Counted from the stretch's first letter, positions 4,123 to 50,230 are shown. The stretch is DNA of 64,000 nt from an uncultured Eubacteriales bacterium (GCA_900542425.1 UQNQ01000002.1:44843-108842); one strand, 5' to 3'. Notes: generated by a model not told the origin, from the letters alone. Made by a program: numbers and translations.

Positions 4123-5262
4123 CTATGACAAATAATAATCGTTGATATAAAGGTTCGAAGCATTTTTATTGTCTGTAAAAAATCCGTTCTGATCAAAAAG
4201 TTCAGGACTGATATCCGTTTTATATACGTTCAGACATTCGTTGACGTCGGCAAGTGCTTCTTTTTTATTCAGGCAATAGTAGAGCCACGCTCCCGTCGCG
4301 GGATTCTGTACGGTTGAGCCACCGATGGTACGCACCGCGATATTTGCGTTATCCACGGAATATACCGATTTCGTATAGGAAACGATGTCCGCCACGGACA
4401 TCGAGGTATTGACATTGTTGATAAGATTCGGAATCATCGATATCATATTGCCGACGGTAATGTTATTTTTCACCTGACGCAGCGCTTCCACCATAAAGTC
4501 ACCTCGTAGTTCCACACGTCCGATGTCCCCCGTCGCATATCCGGAACGATACCGGATCAGCTGTTCGCATTGCTCCCCGTTCAGATGCTGATAACCGGCT
4601 TTCAGATGAATATAAAGATTCTGATCCGGGTCCTCATAATCCATATCTTCGGGAATATCATACCAAATACCGCCGACAGCGTCGATAACGTTCCGGAAGC
4701 CCGTTGTATTGATGAGTATATATTCATCAATATTGACACAAAGCGCCGCTGACAGTCTTGCCTGCAAATCCTGCATGGCAAGATGCTTCGCCTTCGCCTC
4801 GGTTGCGCCGCCGTTGCGCTGCCGATTGTATTCTGCCGTAAAGACGGCATTCACCCGCGTCACACTGGAATAACCTCCCACTTCTTTGTTAATAAAGGTG
4901 TCACGTGGGATCTGGACGATGTTGATTTTGCCGGACTGGGTATCTAAGGATGCAAGCATCAGTACATCCGTGCTCATAGAGACATCATCCACGCCGGCAA
5001 CAAGAAACGTATAAAAACCGTTTTTCCTCGTAAAAGGATCCTCCGGATCTGTCGCGGTAGCGGTCGTTTCCTCTGCGGGAGCCGTGGTTCCATCCGTAGG
5101 GAACTGCGGAGTCGGATCGACTGACGGCTTATGAAGCAGCAAAGCGGTTACGGTAATACCGGCAATCACAAATACGGCGCAAATATACGCCATGACAATA
5201 AGAAGCCCGCGCGGCATCTTATTTTTTCCCCTCTGGGTTTTTCTGAAATTATTTTTATCCAT
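4123..5262 (-). CDS. LytR-CpsA-Psr (LCP) family cell-envelope phosphotransferase
   Basis: N-terminal TM anchor followed by an LCP domain (FLVAGVDD..DVLMLASLD..VQIPRDT). Confidence 0.85.
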   Translation of the reverse strand: MDKNNFRKTQRGKNKMPRGLLIVMAYICAVFVIAGITVTALLLHKPSVDPTPQFPTDGTTAPAEETTATATDPEDPFTRKNGFYTFLVAGVDDVSMSTDVLMLASLDTQSGKINIVQIPRDTFINKEVGGYSSVTRVNAVFTAEYNRQRNGGATEAKAKHLAMQDLQARLSAALCVNIDEYILINTTGFRNVIDAVGGIWYDIPEDMDYEDPDQNLYIHLKAGYQHLNGEQCEQLIRYRSGYATGDIGRVELRGDFMVEALRQVKNNITVGNMISMIPNLINNVNTSMSVADIVSYTKSVYSVDNANIAVRTIGGSTVQNPATGAWLYYCLNKKEALADVNECLNVYKTDISPELFDQNGFFTDNKNASNLYINDYYLS

Positions 5263-5286
5263 ATTGTTCCTCTTTGAAAAGCGGCG

Positions 5287-5919
5287 TTATACCATCGCGT
5301 TCCATGCCGAGAGCATCTCGGCGTCGATCTTTCTGCCCTTCTCAATTAGATACGTTACAGTGAAACCGATAATTCTTTTTACGGTGTCGTCCAGCAGGCG
5401 GTAAAGCGCAGCTTTATCGTTTTTGTTTATTTTCCCACATTCTCCATGCAAATATTCTCTCATTTCCGCACAGGAACGGTATTTTCTTCCCGGTTCTGTA
5501 AAATCTGCCGCAAACAGCATTTTGTCAATCACAGACATTCCTGCTTTTCCGGTTGTATGGCAAGCTATCGCGGAATACACTTTATCACATACGGTTTCTT
5601 TGCCGAAAATTTCTCTTGCAAACGGCGCTCCGGTATACTGGTGCAATGTGGATATCACAGAAGACACATCCTGAGGCAGACAGATCCCATATTTTTCACA
5701 TAGAGCAAGCTGTTCATTATCGGTTTTCGCTTTGGTGATGTCATGCAAAAGCGCCGCCGTAAAAAGCGCCGTGCGATCTTCGTCAGAGAGACCGAATGTT
5801 TCCGCCATCCAAATGCATTCCTCCAAAACACCGAGCGTATGGTCGATCCGTTTGGCATCCTCATAGTTAGGAAGAGCCTTTTTGATAGATTCAAGCTGTT
5901 GTTGATATCCGCATGTCAT
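5287..5919 (-). CDS. yqeK: HD-domain bis(5'-nucleosyl)-tetraphosphatase YqeK
   Basis: HD motif (ALLHDITK) and the conserved nadD-yqeK pairing. The start is taken at the internal ATG (MTCGYQQ) that abuts the nadD stop; the longer ORF to 5973 overlaps nadD. Confidence 0.8.
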   Translation of the reverse strand: MTCGYQQQLESIKKALPNYEDAKRIDHTLGVLEECIWMAETFGLSDEDRTALFTAALLHDITKAKTDNEQLALCEKYGICLPQDVSSVISTLHQYTGAPFAREIFGKETVCDKVYSAIACHTTGKAGMSVIDKMLFAADFTEPGRKYRSCAEMREYLHGECGKINKNDKAALYRLLDDTVKRIIGFTVTYLIEKGRKIDAEMLSAWNAMV

Positions 5920-6530
5920 CGATACAAATCCTTCTTCTTCACATATTCCCAAACAGGTTCCGGCAAATAACATGAAACATCTTCGCCTCTTTGAATCATT
6001 TGTCGGATTTTGCTGGAAGATATCTCAATCGGATCAAACAAGAGATCCAAAATTTTCGCATGGAAACGTTCCGTAAGATAACACTTTTTCTCTGTGATCC
6101 GCTCCATAAGTGTCACTCCCTGACGTTCCCGCGCCGCATAGGCAAGCGTACACATAGAAAGAATGTCCTCAAAGCGGTACCACTCATCAAAGGTAAGCAG
6201 CATATCCGTTCCGCAATAGAGATATAAATCGGAGAAGCCCATTTCCCGAAAGCGGCACAGCGTCAAATACGTATAACTCTTTCCCTCGCTGCGGATTTCC
6301 ATATCAGAAACCACAACTTTTTCTGAAAACGCCGCCGCATCAAATGCAAGCCGCGTCATTTCCAGACGGTATTCGGGTTTGTCGTATTTTCCGATTTCCT
6401 TGTGCGGCGGAATCCGGTCCGGAATGACATAGAGCTGATCCAGTTTCGCCTGCCTGATAAATTCGTATGCGGCTTTCATATGCCCGTTGTGAATGGGATC
6501 AAATGTACCGCCAAAAATACCGATTCTCAT
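5916..6530 (-). CDS. nadD: nicotinate-nucleotide adenylyltransferase
   Basis: MRIGIFGGTFDPIHNGH nucleotidyltransferase motif. The start is taken at that Met rather than the upstream ORF start at 6596. Confidence 0.9.
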   Translation of the reverse strand: MRIGIFGGTFDPIHNGHMKAAYEFIRQAKLDQLYVIPDRIPPHKEIGKYDKPEYRLEMTRLAFDAAAFSEKVVVSDMEIRSEGKSYTYLTLCRFREMGFSDLYLYCGTDMLLTFDEWYRFEDILSMCTLAYAARERQGVTLMERITEKKCYLTERFHAKILDLLFDPIEISSSKIRQMIQRGEDVSCYLPEPVWEYVKKKDLYR

Positions 6531-6543
6531 CTTTTTTACGATA

Positions 6544-6837
6544 TCAAACAGGAAGCTCAATTTTTTTGTGCTTCTTGGATTCCCTGTAAAGAACAAATCG
6601 GCTGCCCGTGACGGAAATCACCTCAGCTCCAAGCGATGAGGCAAGCAGCTCCGCTGCCTCTCTCGGACCGTATTCGCAGGTATCCAGTGTGCGAAGCTTG
6701 ATCAGTTCCCGCGCTTCAAGCGTATAATCCAGCTGTTCCGTCATATTGTCGCTGATCCCACCTTTTCCTATTTGAAAAATGGTATCATAGCGATTTGCCA
6801 TAGCACGCAGATAGGCGCGCTGTTTACTTGTCAACAT
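6544..6837 (-). CDS. yhbY: YhbY/CRM-domain RNA-binding protein
   Basis: The opening LTSKQRAYLRAMAN...FQIGKGGIS matches the YhbY family. The start is taken at the internal Met 12. Confidence 0.85.
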   Translation of the reverse strand: MLTSKQRAYLRAMANRYDTIFQIGKGGISDNMTEQLDYTLEARELIKLRTLDTCEYGPREAAELLASSLGAEVISVTGSRFVLYRESKKHKKIELPV

Positions 6838-6869
6838 AAAAAATCTCCTCTGCCGTATATGCGATGACA

Positions 6870-7466
6870 TTAACGGTAGTCATTGCCATCCCCATTCCAT
6901 TCATTTCCGATACGTGATTCACTTGCCTGCTGTTTTTTCATCTCCAAATAATTGTTTTTCGTCCGGTAAAAAAAGCACAGGAAACAAATCAGTGCGACCA
7001 ATGCGCAGACCAGCCCTAAAAATACGATCCCTGTCATTTGCATATACGCACACAATAAGCTGATTATATTCAGGATAATAAGGGCGAACCAGCATTTTTT
7101 CAGACGCTCGGCGCCCAAAGGATATCGGTTTGAAGCTTCTATATCTCCGATTCCCCAGACGATACAATAAGAAATATAATACGACAACACTGCCGAGGCA
7201 ACAGAAAGCAAAACCAAAACCACCGGCGGCGCCGTTAAGGAAAGCCCGAATAGGTCACCTACCCAAAGGAATCCCGTATAAACCGCCATGACAATGCAAA
7301 AAGGCCGTATCCGTTCGAAACGGGGAGATTCCTCTGACAATTCCGCAAGTCCGGAAAAAAACAGCAGATAACCGACAAAAGCCGGAATCAGTCCGACTCG
7401 TATCGTATCAAAATCAATGTTAAAGTTCAAGAAAATAAAAAAGAATCCCCAAAAAAGCTTATTCAT
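6870..7466 (-). CDS. multi-pass membrane protein of unknown function
   Basis: 198 aa with about 6 hydrophobic helices. Its ends overlap or abut the neighbouring genes (ATGA-type junction with rdgB). I do not recognise a family. Confidence 0.5.
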   Translation of the reverse strand: MNKLFWGFFFIFLNFNIDFDTIRVGLIPAFVGYLLFFSGLAELSEESPRFERIRPFCIVMAVYTGFLWVGDLFGLSLTAPPVVLVLLSVASAVLSYYISYCIVWGIGDIEASNRYPLGAERLKKCWFALIILNIISLLCAYMQMTGIVFLGLVCALVALICFLCFFYRTKNNYLEMKKQQASESRIGNEWNGDGNDYR

Positions 7467-42732: not shown

Positions 42733-42801
42733 TTTTGGACCAAAATAAAAATTCCTTCATACAATGGAAACAAACACATTGTAGGAAGGAATTTTTTATT
42801 T

Positions 42802-43659
42802 ATGACCATTCATGTAGTAAAAAAAGGAGAAACACTTTCCGGCATTGCCTCATCTTACGGCGTATCAGAAAATTTTCTTGCGATATGGAACGCAATTTCA
42901 GAACCGTATACCCTTGTCGTAGGACAGGCGCTTCTGATTTTGACTCCATCAGGAACCTATACGGTAAGAGCAGGCGATACCATCGCGTCTATTGCCACAA
43001 GGTTTGGCACAACTGCACGGGAACTTTTTGCAAACAATCCCAATCTTTACGGCGGAATTTTACCGATTTTCCAGGGACAGACACTCATACTCGGCTGGGA
43101 AGAAAAGAAATCCGATACGGTACGGATCAATTCCTATGCATACCCGTTTATTACCGATGAAGCACTTTACGGAACACTTCCCTACCTTACATTTCTTTCT
43201 CCTTTTACATACGGCTTTACTCCACAAGGAGAACTGATTCCTCTTGACGATGAACGACTGATCCTTTCCGCTCTCAGTTACGGGGCGTCACCGCTTATGC
43301 ATCTTTCAACCCTTACCAAGGAAGGAACCTTTTCCAACGAGCTTGCTTCCGCCGTACTCAGAGACAACAACGCGGCAGATACACTGATTTCCAACATTTT
43401 AGAAAACATTCAGGAAAAAGATTATTACGGACTGGATATCGATTTTGAATATGTTCTTCCGGCAGATGCCGCAGCATATGCAGCTTTTATCGAAAAAGCA
43501 AGAATACGCCTAAACGAAGCGGGATATCCCGTGATTGCTGCGCTTGTTCCAAAATCTTCCCGTGATCAGCCCGGCTCCTTCTATGAAGGGCACGATTACG
43601 CGGCGATAGGTGCCGCCGCCAACGCTGTTTTTGTCATGACCTATGAATGGGTTTGCTGA
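42802..43659 (+). CDS. 5' segment (283 codons + 2 junction codons) of an interrupted YaaH/SleL/YdhD-type spore peptidoglycan hydrolase (2x LysM + GH18)
   Basis: Two LysM domains (aa 3-46 and 53-98) and a GH18 barrel start with the catalytic block YGLDIDFEY. The reading frame ends VMTYEW-VC-stop exactly at the insertion junction. Confidence 0.9.
   Translation: MTIHVVKKGETLSGIASSYGVSENFLAIWNAISEPYTLVVGQALLILTPSGTYTVRAGDTIASIATRFGTTARELFANNPNLYGGILPIFQGQTLILGWEEKKSDTVRINSYAYPFITDEALYGTLPYLTFLSPFTYGFTPQGELIPLDDERLILSALSYGASPLMHLSTLTKEGTFSNELASAVLRDNNAADTLISNILENIQEKDYYGLDIDFEYVLPADAAAYAAFIEKARIRLNEAGYPVIAALVPKSSRDQPGSFYEGHDYAAIGAAANAVFVMTYEWVC
43640..43651 (+). repeat. attL core (CCTATGAATGGG)
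   Basis: Identical to 49782..49793 and located at the point where the GH18 frame diverges. Confidence 0.8.
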
Positions 43660-43704
43660 TGATAATACCCTCTAAAAAAAGAATGAATTTGCCGCAAGTT
43701 CTTG

Positions 43705-43950
43705 TCAATCCTCCAAGCCAAGCAAATAATTTACCGATACCCCCAAAACCTCAGAAAAATATTTTAGTTCATAATCCGGAACAACACGGTCTCCCACCTC
43801 AATCCTGCTGATTGTTTTTTGCATCATTCCCACTCCGATGAGTTGAAGCTTCACTGCCAAATCATTTTGTGTAAGCCCTCGCGCCTCTCTTGTTTGCCGA
43901 ATCCGTTTTCCGCAGAAATTAACTTTGCCATTTTGACCATTTATTTTCAT
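43705..43950 (-). CDS. XRE-family HTH protein (phage cI/Cro-like)
   Basis: 81 aa from MKINGQNG, with an HTH_3 core IRQTREARGLTQNDLAVKLQLIGVGMMQKTISRIEVG. GGAG lies 9 nt before the ATG. The gene sits 53 bp inside attL. Confidence 0.8.
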   Translation of the reverse strand: MKINGQNGKVNFCGKRIRQTREARGLTQNDLAVKLQLIGVGMMQKTISRIEVGDRVVPDYELKYFSEVLGVSVNYLLGLED

Positions 43951-44098: not shown

Positions 44099-44136
44099 TA
44101 AAAATCCGACCTCATTCATAGGTCGGATTTTATTTT
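44099..44136. terminator. bidirectional intrinsic terminator inside the element
   Basis: Stem AAAATCCGACC / GGTCGGATTTT with a 9-nt loop, flanked by A- and T-runs. Confidence 0.7.
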
Positions 44137-44242: not shown

Positions 44243-44431
44243 TTACTGTCGTTTGTTTTCTCTGTCTGTCGCTATCCTACCGAACTGCTGTAAAATATGA
44301 AGTATTTCAGCTTCCCGCAGCGCCCTCTCTTCCTCTGTCAAAATCGGACGGAAAATATTGACCGTTGTGCTGTCCATCTGAATCGTTTTTACCCGATATC
44401 CGTTTTCTGTGATTCTCCATTCATGATTCAT
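44243..44431 (-). CDS. 62-aa hypothetical protein (orphan)
   Basis: ATG at 44431 lies 5 nt after GGAAGGGGGGG. The protein reads MNHEWRITENGYRVKTIQMDSTTVNIFRPILTEEERALREAEILHILQQFG. I do not recognise a family. Confidence 0.5.
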   Translation of the reverse strand: MNHEWRITENGYRVKTIQMDSTTVNIFRPILTEEERALREAEILHILQQFGRIATDRENKRQ

Positions 44432-44861: not shown

Positions 44862-46505
<1,644 letters not shown>

Positions 46506-46785: not shown

Positions 46786-47859
46786 TCAATGATTTTTTTC
46801 TTCGGCATCCTGTTCCATGATCTCAAGATACGCGCGCAGTGCTGTCGGAATCGCATAATGTGTCCGTATTGTCTTCGCACTTTCCCATGTGAACGCATTC
46901 AAAGGGGTTACACATTCTGCAAGGTATCCCGTCATATGCCATTCAACATGTGTAAAAATATGAACAGCATTTCCGCATATCCCACAAGACAATACTTCTG
47001 TACCAAGATTGCGAATATAGATCGCCGCTTCCTCTGGCGTAAACTTTCCCGAAATATTCGGAAATTCCCAAAGTCCGGCAAGCAGACCCCTGTTCGGTCT
47101 TTTTTGAATGGCATAATATCCGCGGCAAGAAAGGAGAAATACCGTTAGCTCCTCCCGTCTGCGAGCTTTTTTCGGACTTTTCACCGGAAATTCTTCCGCC
47201 CGCGAGGAAAGACCTGCTTCACACTGCCGAAAAAGAGGACAACTCTCACATTTCGGCAAACCGTTCGGAATACAGATATTTTCTCCCAGCTCCATAATCG
47301 CCTGTGTCAAATTACCAGCGTCTGCCCCAGATGGATAAACAGTCCGCAATGCATCTGTGACCTGTTTTTTTGTTGCGGGCAATGCAATATCGTCTGTGCA
47401 TCCAAGAAAACGCATCACCACCCGAAGAACGTTTCCGTCTACAGCAGGTTCTGGTCTGCCAAAGGCGATAGAAGCAATCGCACCTGCGGTATATTCCCCA
47501 ATTCCAGGGAGTTTTTTCAATTCCTCCGCCGTATCCGGCAAAGCGCCGGCATAAGACGCCATTAACATCTCCGCACTTCTTTTTAAATTTCGCGCCCGGC
47601 TGTAATATCCGAGTCCCTCCCATAGCTTCATTAGTCTGTCGTCGGACACTGCGGCAAGTGCGGACACCGTGGGTAACTCATATAGGAAACGCTTGTAATA
47701 CGGAATAACTGCCGCAGTTCTCGTCTGCTGAAGCATGATTTCCGAAATCCATACATGATATGGCGTCGCATCTACACGCCATGGAAGCTCCTTTTGGTTC
47801 TTTTTGTACCAAACAAGAAGAGGCTCTACAATATGTACCAGCCGATTTTCTTTTTTCAT
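46786..47859 (-). CDS. mutY: A/G-specific adenine DNA glycosylase MutY
   Basis: 357 aa with an HhH-GPD domain (LPGIGEYTAGAI), a 4Fe-4S Cys cluster (CIPNGLPKCESCPLFRQC) and a C-terminal NUDIX-like domain. Confidence 0.9.
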   Translation of the reverse strand: MKKENRLVHIVEPLLVWYKKNQKELPWRVDATPYHVWISEIMLQQTRTAAVIPYYKRFLYELPTVSALAAVSDDRLMKLWEGLGYYSRARNLKRSAEMLMASYAGALPDTAEELKKLPGIGEYTAGAIASIAFGRPEPAVDGNVLRVVMRFLGCTDDIALPATKKQVTDALRTVYPSGADAGNLTQAIMELGENICIPNGLPKCESCPLFRQCEAGLSSRAEEFPVKSPKKARRREELTVFLLSCRGYYAIQKRPNRGLLAGLWEFPNISGKFTPEEAAIYIRNLGTEVLSCGICGNAVHIFTHVEWHMTGYLAECVTPLNAFTWESAKTIRTHYAIPTALRAYLEIMEQDAEEKNH

Positions 47860-48225
47860 TCTCTCAAATCGCCTTTCATCTCATCGGTATTTCAATCTAC
47901 CTTTATACTTTATGACTGTATCATAAATCGGGCGATTTGTCAATTTATACAGATAAAACGACTTTTTTCACAGACTTTTCCAGATTTTCTCATCATCCCG
48001 TTTTCTCTCAAATTTATTAGAAAGAAATCTCCACCGTTGTACCAACCGTTATAGAGATTTTTTATATTTTAGATATTGAAAACTCGAACATCATCCGAAG
48101 CAGCGTCATTTTTAACAAAACGGCTGGTTTTTTCATATAATGGGACCGGAATGATCTAAAATGAGCCTACATTCTTTTTTATGAATCGTTTTTCAAACTT
48201 ACACTGTGATTCAAAAGGAGACCCT

Positions 48226-49755
48226 ATGGCAGCTATTTATCTTGTATATCTGCGTAAATCACGTCAAGACAATCCGGATGAAAGTGTGGAAGAGGTGCTG
48301 GCAAAGCATGAAATCATGCTTCAGGAATATGCAAAAAAAGAGCTCGGCTACACGATTCCCCGCGAGTGTATTTACCGCGAAATTGTCTCCGGCGAATCCA
48401 TAGAAGATCGAATCGAAATCAAAAAAGTGCTGCTCCGCATGGAAAATCCCGATGTCAAAGGAATCCTTGTTGTGGATCCTCAAAGACTGTCGAGAGGAGA
48501 TTTGGAGGATTGCGGACGACTGATCAATGCGCTTAAATGGACAAATACGCTTGTGCTTACCCCTCCGATGACCTATGACATGAACAATAAAATGGAGCGA
48601 AGATTCTTTCAGGATGAGCTTCTGCGCGGCAGAGATTATCTGGAATATACAAAGGAAATTTTGTGGCGCGGAAGGATCGCTTCGGCAAAACGCGGATGCT
48701 ACGTCTCATCCGTTCCGCCATACGGCTATGACAGAGTAAAAAGCGGAAAAGACTATACTCTTGCGCCCAATCAAAATGCAGACATTGTGCGGTTTGTATT
48801 TGATCTGTACGTCAACAAAGGTATCGCCGCAAGTCAAATCGCACGAATGCTCAATGAAAAAGGAATCAAAAATTTCCGTGGTGGAGAATGGGGCAGGTCC
48901 AGCATTTCCTATATGCTTAGCAATCAGCATTATATCGGAAAAATTGTCTATAATCGGAGACATCATGTCGTTATGATGGAAGAAGGACAACGAACGCAGA
49001 AAAGAACACAGAGCCATAAAAACGACATTATCGTCGTGGATGGGAAGCATCCGGCCATCATCGATATGGATACCTGGAATAAAGCCCAGCATTTGATGGA
49101 AAGAAAAAAAACTCCAAAATTAAAGCATGGCAAAACATTGCGAAATCCGCTCGCCGGCATATTGGTTTGCGGAACCTGCGGACATATGATGACATTGAAT
49201 ATACAAAAGTCCAAAGCAGACCGGCTCGTCTGTACCAGAATATCCTCCGTATCGCACGGAAAATCCGTTCGCCTGCATGATGTTATGAACGCACTGATCG
49301 TAGCACTCGAAACCGCAGAACTTCCACAGCTTCAAACAAGTCTGAAGACACGCACAGAATTTTCTTCGGAAATTCAAACACAAATGATCCGTCGCTTCGA
49401 AAAACAGCTATCCGAATATAAAGAACAAGAAGAAACACAATATGAACTCTTAGAAACAAAAAAATACACGCAGGAGCTCTTTGACAGAAGAAACGCCGTC
49501 CTGCGCGAAAAAATCGAGTTGTGCGAAATGCAGTTAAAAGAAGTAAAAAGCGAAATGCAAGCCCACAACGATGATTGGAATGCCATGATTCAGCTGCAAG
49601 ATGCCCTTGACTCCCTAAAAGATGATTCTTTAGACGCTCAAACAAAAAACTTTATATTAAAAGCTATCGTCGAAAAAATCATCTATAAGCCATCTCCCAT
49701 TCAGAAAACTCACGGAAGCACCGATTTCACACTGGATATTCTATTGAGGATATAG
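48226..49755 (+). CDS. large serine recombinase (SpoIVCA / phage integrase type)
   Basis: N-terminal resolvase domain with the catalytic-serine motif YLRKSRQD, a recombinase domain, the zinc ribbon CGTCGH...C, and a C-terminal coiled coil. AGGAG lies 7 nt before the ATG at 48226. The stop is 26 bp from the attR core. Confidence 0.93.
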   Translation: MAAIYLVYLRKSRQDNPDESVEEVLAKHEIMLQEYAKKELGYTIPRECIYREIVSGESIEDRIEIKKVLLRMENPDVKGILVVDPQRLSRGDLEDCGRLINALKWTNTLVLTPPMTYDMNNKMERRFFQDELLRGRDYLEYTKEILWRGRIASAKRGCYVSSVPPYGYDRVKSGKDYTLAPNQNADIVRFVFDLYVNKGIAASQIARMLNEKGIKNFRGGEWGRSSISYMLSNQHYIGKIVYNRRHHVVMMEEGQRTQKRTQSHKNDIIVVDGKHPAIIDMDTWNKAQHLMERKKTPKLKHGKTLRNPLAGILVCGTCGHMMTLNIQKSKADRLVCTRISSVSHGKSVRLHDVMNALIVALETAELPQLQTSLKTRTEFSSEIQTQMIRRFEKQLSEYKEQEETQYELLETKKYTQELFDRRNAVLREKIELCEMQLKEVKSEMQAHNDDWNAMIQLQDALDSLKDDSLDAQTKNFILKAIVEKIIYKPSPIQKTHGSTDFTLDILLRI

Positions 49756-49781
49756 ATTTTTATGTTATGATCATCGACAGT

Positions 49782-49793
49782 CCTATGAATGGG
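49782..49793 (+). repeat. attR core (CCTATGAATGGG)
   Basis: Identical to 43640..43651. The GH18 frame resumes through it as YEWGYTYGPPMAVAPL. Confidence 0.8.
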
Positions 49794-50230
49794 GATATAC
49801 ATACGGTCCGCCAATGGCAGTGGCACCTCTCGAATCCGTACGCCGTGTCCTTGATTATGCAGTATCAGAAATCCCCGCAGATAAAATTTATATGGGACTT
49901 CCCAATTACGGATATGATTGGACATTGCCTTACAAGCAAGGAGAAACGCGCGCAAAGCTTGTCGGCAATGAGGAAGCTGTCGATATTGCAAGACGCTACG
50001 GAGCAGAAATCCGATATGACGAAGCGGCGGCAACACCATATTTTGAGTATACGGAAAACGGCAACGCGCATATCGTTTGGTTTGAAGACGCCCGAAGCTG
50101 GGCGGCAAAGCTTGCTCTGATCCCCGAATACGGTCTTCTCGGCGCGGGCGTTTGGAATGCAATGCGTCCCTTTACTCCCGGCTGGCTGGTACTCCAATCC
50201 GGATACCGTGTAACCGCTTTTCTGGAGTAA
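49793..50230 (+). CDS. 3' segment (145 codons) of the interrupted YaaH/SleL/YdhD-type GH18 hydrolase
   Basis: GYTYGPPMAVAPL...KIYMGLPNYGYDW...GAGVWN is the distal half of a GH18 barrel. It has no RBS of its own and the frame is open back only to 49748. Confidence 0.9.
   Translation, partial: GYTYGPPMAVAPLESVRRVLDYAVSEIPADKIYMGLPNYGYDWTLPYKQGETRAKLVGNEEAVDIARRYGAEIRYDEAAATPYFEYTENGNAHIVWFEDARSWAAKLALIPEYGLLGAGVWNAMRPFTPGWLVLQSGYRVTAFLE

Follow-up and report, generated by a model that had tools for sequence, protein, structure and literature searches.

The window, the whole 64,000-nucleotide stretch of an uncultured Eubacteriales genome analyzed here, contains a GH18 hydrolase gene of the YaaH/SleL type that is split by an insert of 6,142 bp. 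The insert carries five genes, namely an XRE-type HTH gene, a 62-aa orphan open reading frame (orf62), a collagen-repeat gene, mutY and, at its right end, a gene for a large serine recombinase (LSR), and a 12-bp direct repeat stands at each of its ends. The features of the locus are as follows.

42802..43651, + strand: 5' part of the split gene, with two LysM domains and the first half of GH18, ending ...VFVMTYEW (Pfam LysM twice, Glyco_hydro_18)
43622..43669, + strand: putative attL, a B-type left half-site (TTTTGTCATGA motif) and a P-type right half-site (GATGAT motif)
43640..43651, + strand: core of attL, with the predicted crossover GA at 43645-43646
43705..43950, - strand: XRE-family HTH gene, 81 aa from an internal ATG (Pfam HTH_3/HTH_31; PHROG transcriptional repressor families)
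44101..44131, no strand assigned: terminator-like hairpin of 12 pairs between the XRE gene and orf62
44243..44431, - strand: orf62, a 62-aa orphan ORF with a strong RBS, the sole small gene in the element without an assignment
44862..46505, - strand: gene for a 547-aa collagen-repeat protein, cargo (Pfam Collagen)
46786..47859, - strand: mutY (A/G-specific adenine glycosylase), cargo (TIGR01084, 291.9 bits, cut-off 286.5)
48112..48141, + strand: near-consensus sigma-70-type promoter TTAACA-18-TATAAT (11/12), 85 nt upstream of the recombinase start
48226..49755, + strand: large serine recombinase, 509 aa from an ATG with an AGGAG RBS; longest ORF from 48181
49764..49811, + strand: putative attR, a P-type left half-site (ATCATC motif) and a B-type right half-site
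49782..49793, + strand: core of attR, with the predicted crossover GA at 49787-49788
49794..50230, + strand: 3' part of the split gene, GYTYGPPMAVAP... up to the stop codon (Pfam Glyco_hydro_18, profile 211-314)

The 5' open reading frame reads through into the element and stops at 43659, and no stop or frameshift disrupts either half of the host gene. Joining the flanks in silico yields an uninterrupted 428-aa ORF of the YaaH/SleL type, in which two LysM domains accompany an entire GH18 domain. This ORF can be aligned with its intact counterparts in five congeners and, over its full length, with the solved structures of YaaH (PDB 4s3k; E 7e-89, residues 3-425) and SleL (4s3j; 1e-79). The original prediction had placed the repeat core within the MTYEWG codons of GH18, and the joined ORF bears this out. 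Both Spo0A and SpoIVA are encoded in this genome. The sequence CATACAAT (42758-42765), located 37 nt upstream of the hydrolase start codon, is a perfect match to CATACA-T, the Bacillus sigma-E -10 consensus, with no convincing -35 seen.

Within the element, the XRE gene (longest ORF to 43998) lies 53 nt inside attL and is directed at it, while the collagen-repeat protein matches PHROG tail-fibre families through its repeats only. Partial relatives of the collagen repeat region were observed at G000:C24:1-473 and C26:2582-2851 in this genome (G000), one of them at a contig edge, and at G001:C16:67496-68797 in a sister species; collagen repeats may be breaking the assemblies. Searches against Pfam and PHROG identified no virion structural, packaging or lysis genes.

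Repeat symmetry points to serine integrase attachment sites

In agreement with the claim of a 12-bp core common to attL and attR, the window contains two copies of the 12-mer CCTATGAATGGG and no more, at 43640-43651 and 49782-49793 on the + strand. Shuffling sets the expectation at 0.01 copies, and two or more copies turned up in 0 of 100 shuffles. Because the adjacent bases differ between the two copies, their identity is exactly 12 nt. The attP obtained from the joined element ends is GTTATGATCATCGACAGT-core-TTTGCTGATGATAATACC, and a recount of its 18-nt arms as an inverted repeat returned the 12 of 18 matches originally given, a score reached or exceeded with a probability of 6.4e-4 over all window positions. 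When the core was included and every register scanned, the dyad scored 16/24 in a single peak between core bases 6 and 7 (CCTATG|AATGGG), with a background probability of 2.7e-4 for at least 16/24 over all window positions and a second-best register of 12. Serine integrases recombine attP with attB, or attL with attR when an RDF is present, through a cut with a 2-bp stagger; their att sites span some 40-50 bp and have imperfect dyad symmetry around a non-palindromic central dinucleotide, a form that the sites described here share. In silico joining predicts that excision would generate the attB junction GTCATGACCTATGAATGGGGATATACA, which includes GTTTTTGTCATGACCTATGAATGGGGATATACATACGG, and the attP junction CGACAGTCCTATGAATGGGTTTGCTGA, which includes ATCATCGACAGTCCTATGAATGGGTTTGCTGATGAT.

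The gene at the right end of the element encodes a credible partner for such sites. Its product is recognized by the Pfam profiles Resolvase (PF00239, 29.2 bits, cut-off 23.3) and Recombinase (PF07508, 85.7 bits, residues 198-308), with Zn_ribbon_recom (PF13408) at 24.2 bits falling just below its cut-off of 25.3, and it matches the PHROG_95 integrase family at 2e-81. The nearest solved structure is that of SPbeta SprA/YokA (9dxh; E 2e-35, alignment over residues 6-494). The catalytic motif YLRKSRQD, together with DPQRLSRGD, is invariant relative to the homologue in the sister species G002 and is also present in that of a viral contig, L139, described below. A distance of 32 nt separates the recombinase stop codon from the attR dyad center. 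We regard it as nearly certain that the 12-bp repeats are LSR att sites. The core is read here as two inner half-sites around the crossover, with GA the likely crossover dinucleotide and strand exchange predicted at the central GA of each copy (43645-6 and 49787-8). The ATCAT/ATGAT blocks positioned 14-18 nt from the center, which are present on the element-derived arms only, would represent outer motifs that are probably bound by the zinc-ribbon domain.

The arms of attB are symmetric at 6/18 positions, consistent with the weak symmetry first ascribed to them, but that description is incomplete. In a scan of attB in the three occupied genomes with a position weight matrix (PWM) of the attP outer motif, the left half gave its best score exactly 5 bp inward, at TTTTGTCATGA (8.3 bits in G000, 6.2 in G002 and 4.2 in G001), where GTCAT occupies -13..-9, and the right half gave no shifted peak. 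A structure-derived model of the Listeria A118 (LI) integrase places the zinc-ribbon, or outer, motif 5 bp nearer the center in attB than in attP (PMC3783163), and the left half of attB appears to follow this model on its one side. In their left half, the sites described here also share with the LI model an imperfect dyad about a central dinucleotide and an inner RD plus outer ZD motif (PMC3783163); they differ from it in motif sequence, in an attB right half without the shifted motif and in that the protein-DNA contacts here are ones we infer.

Occupied and empty sites among congeners

The host gene was compared in 16 genomes of the genus, with 15 congeners searched. Two sister species, G001 and G002, have this gene interrupted at the identical codon, beside related recombinases, as anticipated by the suggestion that the element could recognize the same site in other genomes. 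The G002 recombinase is 77-78% identical to the one described here, and that of G001 is represented by a C-terminal fragment with 61% identity, located at the edge of a contig. The present element resembles the G001 element at both ends, with an XRE gene adjoining attL (63% identical and in the same place) and the recombinase adjoining attR, and has nothing in common with the G002 element except the integrase gene. Among species representatives outside the genus, no GH18 fragment adjoining a related recombinase was found.

G002 is an uncultured Eubacteriales metagenome-assembled genome (CAKSDZ01) from a human-gut study. Its insert (G002:C2:227135-270996; L032-L034) spans 43,861 bp and is a complete-looking prophage in the same GH18 codon, encoding terminase, portal, minor head and tape measure proteins and a collagen-repeat tail fibre. 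Five congeners (G009, G010, G011, G012 and G014) have an empty attB and an intact gene, and the attB of G012 contains ACGAAT. The hydrolase proteins of G012 and G002 are 97.9% identical (dS 0.35, dN/dS 0.026), and the occupied and empty states are therefore found in near-sister species.

The junctions in the sister species further define the exchange. Both G001 and G002 have CAT-ATGAATGGG at attL and CCG-ATGAATGGG at attR, with identity blocks ATGAATGGGGAT and ATGAATGGGGCTA that are shifted by 3 nt and extend rightward. The 9-bp ATGAATGGG alone is common to all three elements, indicating that the 12-bp length of the core is incidental. Since the sister identity block is shifted by 3 nt, the crossover would fall within ATGAATGGG, provided that all three enzymes cut equivalently.

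A perfect direct repeat at both ends of an insert could also arise if a transposase had duplicated its target site, or the repeat could be the core of a tyrosine-integrase site, with the serine recombinase a bystander in either case. We consider this extremely improbable. The G001 and G002 junction copies differ, CAT at attL versus CCG at attR, as reciprocal exchange predicts, which excludes target-site duplication; moreover, the element contains neither a transposase nor a tyrosine recombinase, the site lies at a family-typical distance past the recombinase stop, and an intact attP with the same dyad is present in viral contigs. The likely origin of the repeats is instead as attL and attR of a phage-type LSR that integrated within the coding region for a spore cortex hydrolase of the YaaH/SleL type, with the element entering at the codons CC-TAT-GAA-TGG-G.

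Intact attachment sites and a half-site logo for the integrase family

A scan of viral contigs with a strict left-arm pattern, which proved too specific, gave no match, and a protein-based search of viral contigs identified L139 (IMG/VR UViG_3300006131_000374), the closest free phage, which is 49 kb long and encodes a 72%-identical recombinase. L139 carries an intact attP, ATTTCACGAAGTTTCCATCATTGGCACT-CCGATGAATGGG-GCTGACATTGATAGAAACCTCGTGAAAT, with GH18 sequence on neither side and with a symmetry, by manual count, of up to 25/34. The original proposal to look for attP copies beside related recombinases was thus borne out, with the same center: the dyad center is identical in four attPs, which score 16, 17 and 13 of 24 in G000, G001 and G002 (reconstructed) and 17 in L139 (intact). 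The site is within about 40 nt of the integrase stop in every relative other than L139, where about 2.6 kb (4569-7117) separates the integrase stop from attP and encodes proteins of 139 and 120 aa and a 526-aa HD-domain protein, in what looks like an insertion of moron or defence-type cargo at the integration module.

We next derived a logo from 33 distinct dyads, comprising 66 half-sites, located 15-65 nt past the stop codons of 35-54%-identical IMG/VR recombinases (L140-L218). The consensus from -26 to -1 is t.at.T.cATCAT...tg.gC..aTt, with an outer motif, cATCAT, at -19..-14 and an inner motif, C..AT, at -6..-2. The counts at individual positions were as follows.

Position -18: A in 59/66 half-sites
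Position -16: C in 60/66
Position -15: A in 53/66
Position -14: T in 59/66
Position -6: C in 49/66
Position -2: T in 53/66

The central dinucleotide is TC in 27 and GA in 2 of the 33 dyads (TC/GA 29/33), and the GA center of the four attPs described here is TC on the opposite strand. These four attPs have ATCAT at -18..-14 in 7/8 half-sites, the exception being the right half of L139 with ATCAA, and C at -6, A at -3 and T at -2 in 8/8. The half-sites of the present locus fit all informative positions of the logo. As the logo shows ATCAT at the same place, the ATCATC blocks first noted at this locus are the conserved outer motif of the family, and the half-site geometry attributed from the outset to a large serine recombinase matches that of the related phage attPs. 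The host codons CC-TAT-GAA-TGG-G form a near-palindrome, CCTATG / CCCATT, that fits the inner half-site preference of the integrase family, which accounts for a conserved coding motif serving as the target. The variable inner bases of the logo presumably set the different targets of the family. The core of one contributing site, L180 (CCTATTCATAGG), is identical at 11/12 positions to the reverse complement of the core described here.

The GH18 motif is also used by two more distant LSR lineages. A degenerate att pattern applied to metagenomes gave at least 120 matches, mostly chance, of which a filter for recombinase and GH18 homology kept two contigs, L257 and L314. These encode a 34%-identical recombinase followed, approximately 46 nt past the stop, by TATCATCAAATTA-CCTATGAATGGG and then by a GH18 3' part, ITYEWGYALSEPMAVAP... 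The GH18 part after attR in these contigs (L257 2117-2397 and L314) ends at approximately 48 residues (…PNYGYDWY*) and is followed by a 555-aa ORF; this host gene may have decayed or been interrupted a second time. The second lineage is represented by a viral contig, L340, in which a 37%-identical recombinase is followed by an intact dyad with CCTATGAATGGGG.

Among named phages, Roseburia phage Jekyll (LR596902.1) has the integrase nearest to the present one, with 38% identity. The Jekyll record (L353 1836-1866, L354 1-40) ends 30 nt past the integrase stop, and its ends overlap by 5 nt, GAATT. As at the locus studied here, the joined ends form a dyad with a GA center, CATATCCAACAT…CCGATG|AATTGG…ATGTTGGATATG; in contrast, the Jekyll outer motif is CCAACAT and its core is not the GH18 MTYEWG sequence.

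A reduced element holding the sole mutY

Set beside these phages, the 6.1-kb element is a reduced, non-phage remnant of integration in which the integrase and intact sites have been kept. Its mutY gene is the sole copy in this genome. A protein search found one mutY in each of 10 congeners (G001-G010) with 58-71% amino acid identity, and a DNA search found the gene in 15/15; none of the congener matches adjoins the GH18 gene, and mutY gave no PHROG match. The gene has the appearance of a host gene that was inherited vertically and is now enclosed in an excisable element. The neighbors of mutY are not the same in G001 and G002, and the region of this genome that matches them (C19, 5.8-20.6 kb) contains ordinary metabolic genes with no mobile-element scar. 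With the sole copy inside, heritable loss of the element would leave the cell mutY-deficient, a cost that could favor an immobile element.

Possible excision and its timing

In the mechanism we propose, the insertion would have decayed to its present size with integrase and sites preserved, and we lean toward the view that the integrase still excises the element. Alternatively, the att sites may be real relics of an element that is now fixed, lacking either excision or a directionality factor, with the hydrolase permanently inactivated. The penalty on losing the sole mutY would favor this reading, as would the disappearance of all phage genes except the integrase and XRE genes. Consistent with it as well, no directionality factor was recognized through Pfam or PHROG among the small ORFs, orf62 included, or in the ORF that precedes the G002 integrase, and none of these is common to different elements; orf62, which has no Pfam or PHROG family and is not conserved in related elements, is a speculative candidate for this role. 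In addition, a YaaH/SleL-type gene was found in 8/15 congeners and no GH18 match in 7/15, several of the latter being at least 90% complete, so that the gene may be dispensable in the genus and a permanently split copy might be tolerated without excision. Set against fixation are a recombinase ORF that is intact with conserved catalytic motifs and a pairwise dN/dS of 0.05-0.07, P-type half-sites that equal the intact prophage and the free attP in symmetry, and host-gene halves that have remained open. On balance we judge a fixed element to be unlikely, though a serious contender.

By analogy with skin and SPbeta, excision may occur in the mother cell during sporulation, where it would rebuild the hydrolase gene, a proposal that we place slightly short of an even chance. 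SPbeta is the model phage in this regard, as its excision rebuilds spsM in the mother cell, with SprA expressed constitutively and a small RDF setting directionality (PMC4191935, PMC5499854). The promoter upstream of the recombinase gives no indication of sporulation control: a sigma-E reading of CATATAAT at 48134 is not preferred, since the motif is the -10 of the 11/12 sigma-70-type promoter. Such a promoter would be compatible with an arrangement like that of SPbeta, in which the integrase is expressed constitutively and an RDF controls directionality.

The same promoter would also suit excision of an ordinary prophage or island-like kind, stochastic or stress-induced in vegetative cells and without a link to sporulation, with the GH18 motif merely fitting the half-site preference of the enzyme. 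The complete-looking temperate phage in G002 and the match of the GH18 sequence to the generic inner half-site CC.AT of the family logo are in keeping with this possibility. However, the remnant has no lytic cycle to serve and yet retains its integrase and sites, excision in vegetative cells would lose the sole mutY, and the characterized elements that split mother-cell sporulation genes all excise during sporulation (PMC4191935, PMC5595907, PMC5025042). We therefore view vegetative excision as rather improbable.

A further proposal, which we consider highly unlikely, is that the element acts as a domesticated switch coupling reconstitution of the spore hydrolase to the sole mutY of the genome. 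If so, the terminal mother cell would come to no harm from excision, whereas rare vegetative excision would give rise to heritable lineages with an intact sleL-type gene, no mutY and faster mutation, in effect an excision-driven, irreversible mutator switch. Vegetative excision would be heritable because the excised circle has no recognizable replication gene. SpyCIM1, which reportedly resides at mutL in Streptococcus pyogenes, follows a logic that differs from that of the proposed mutY switch.

Relationship to known gene-splitting elements

The well-documented elements that split sporulation genes include skin, SPbeta, vfbin, vrin and gin. The locus described here resembles SPbeta SprA/SprB at spsM of B. 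subtilis in having an LSR at the element end, a split sporulation gene, here a putative one, and an ORF that is restored by precise excision, here in silico. It differs in that SprA is approximately 29% identical to the present recombinase, the target is a GH18 hydrolase rather than spsM, and a 6.1-kb remnant in which no SprB-like RDF was found replaces a 134-kb active phage. With skin and SpoIVCA in sigK it shares a degenerate phage-derived remnant with a serine recombinase and att sites in a sporulation gene, putative in the present case, as well as unrelated cargo. Skin, however, interrupts an essential sigma factor as opposed to a dispensable-looking cortex hydrolase and is 48 kb in B. subtilis and 14.6 kb in C. 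difficile (skinCd) compared with 6 kb here, where control by sporulation is proposed.

The gin element in gerE of Bacillus cereus ATCC 10987 (GirC-GirX) offers a third comparison, as its serine recombinase acts within a 9-bp shared core (PMC5595907). Both are non-prophage elements in a known or putative sporulation gene with a serine recombinase and a short shared core; gin is 28.6 kb with three recombinases, as opposed to one recombinase with clear phage relatives here. Interruption of the yaaH gene family is itself already on record, insofar as a preprint (bioRxiv 10.1101/2021.11.22.469490) cites yaaH-intervening elements (Abe et al. 2013) in bacteria outside the B. subtilis clade. In comparison with the elements as cited there, the host here belongs to an uncultured genus of Eubacteriales from the human gut, and the anatomy of the att sites has been worked out. 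The element is thus a well-supported further "skin-like" example of gene splitting and no new kind of system.

Implications

With this locus, the range of gene-splitting elements widens from models in Bacillus and Clostridioides to an uncultured genus of Eubacteriales in the human gut, and a housekeeping repair gene, the sole mutY, comes to depend on the fate of a mobile-element remnant. Within a single genus, one site is found vacant, filled by a full prophage or filled by a 6-kb remnant, three states that correspond to the decay series proposed for skin. The analysis also defines a serine-integrase family, predicts its attP, its attB and a GA crossover that falls in a conserved coding motif, and supplies a half-site logo; this set of sites and logo could guide the discovery of integrases and att sites and tests of how their specificity evolves.
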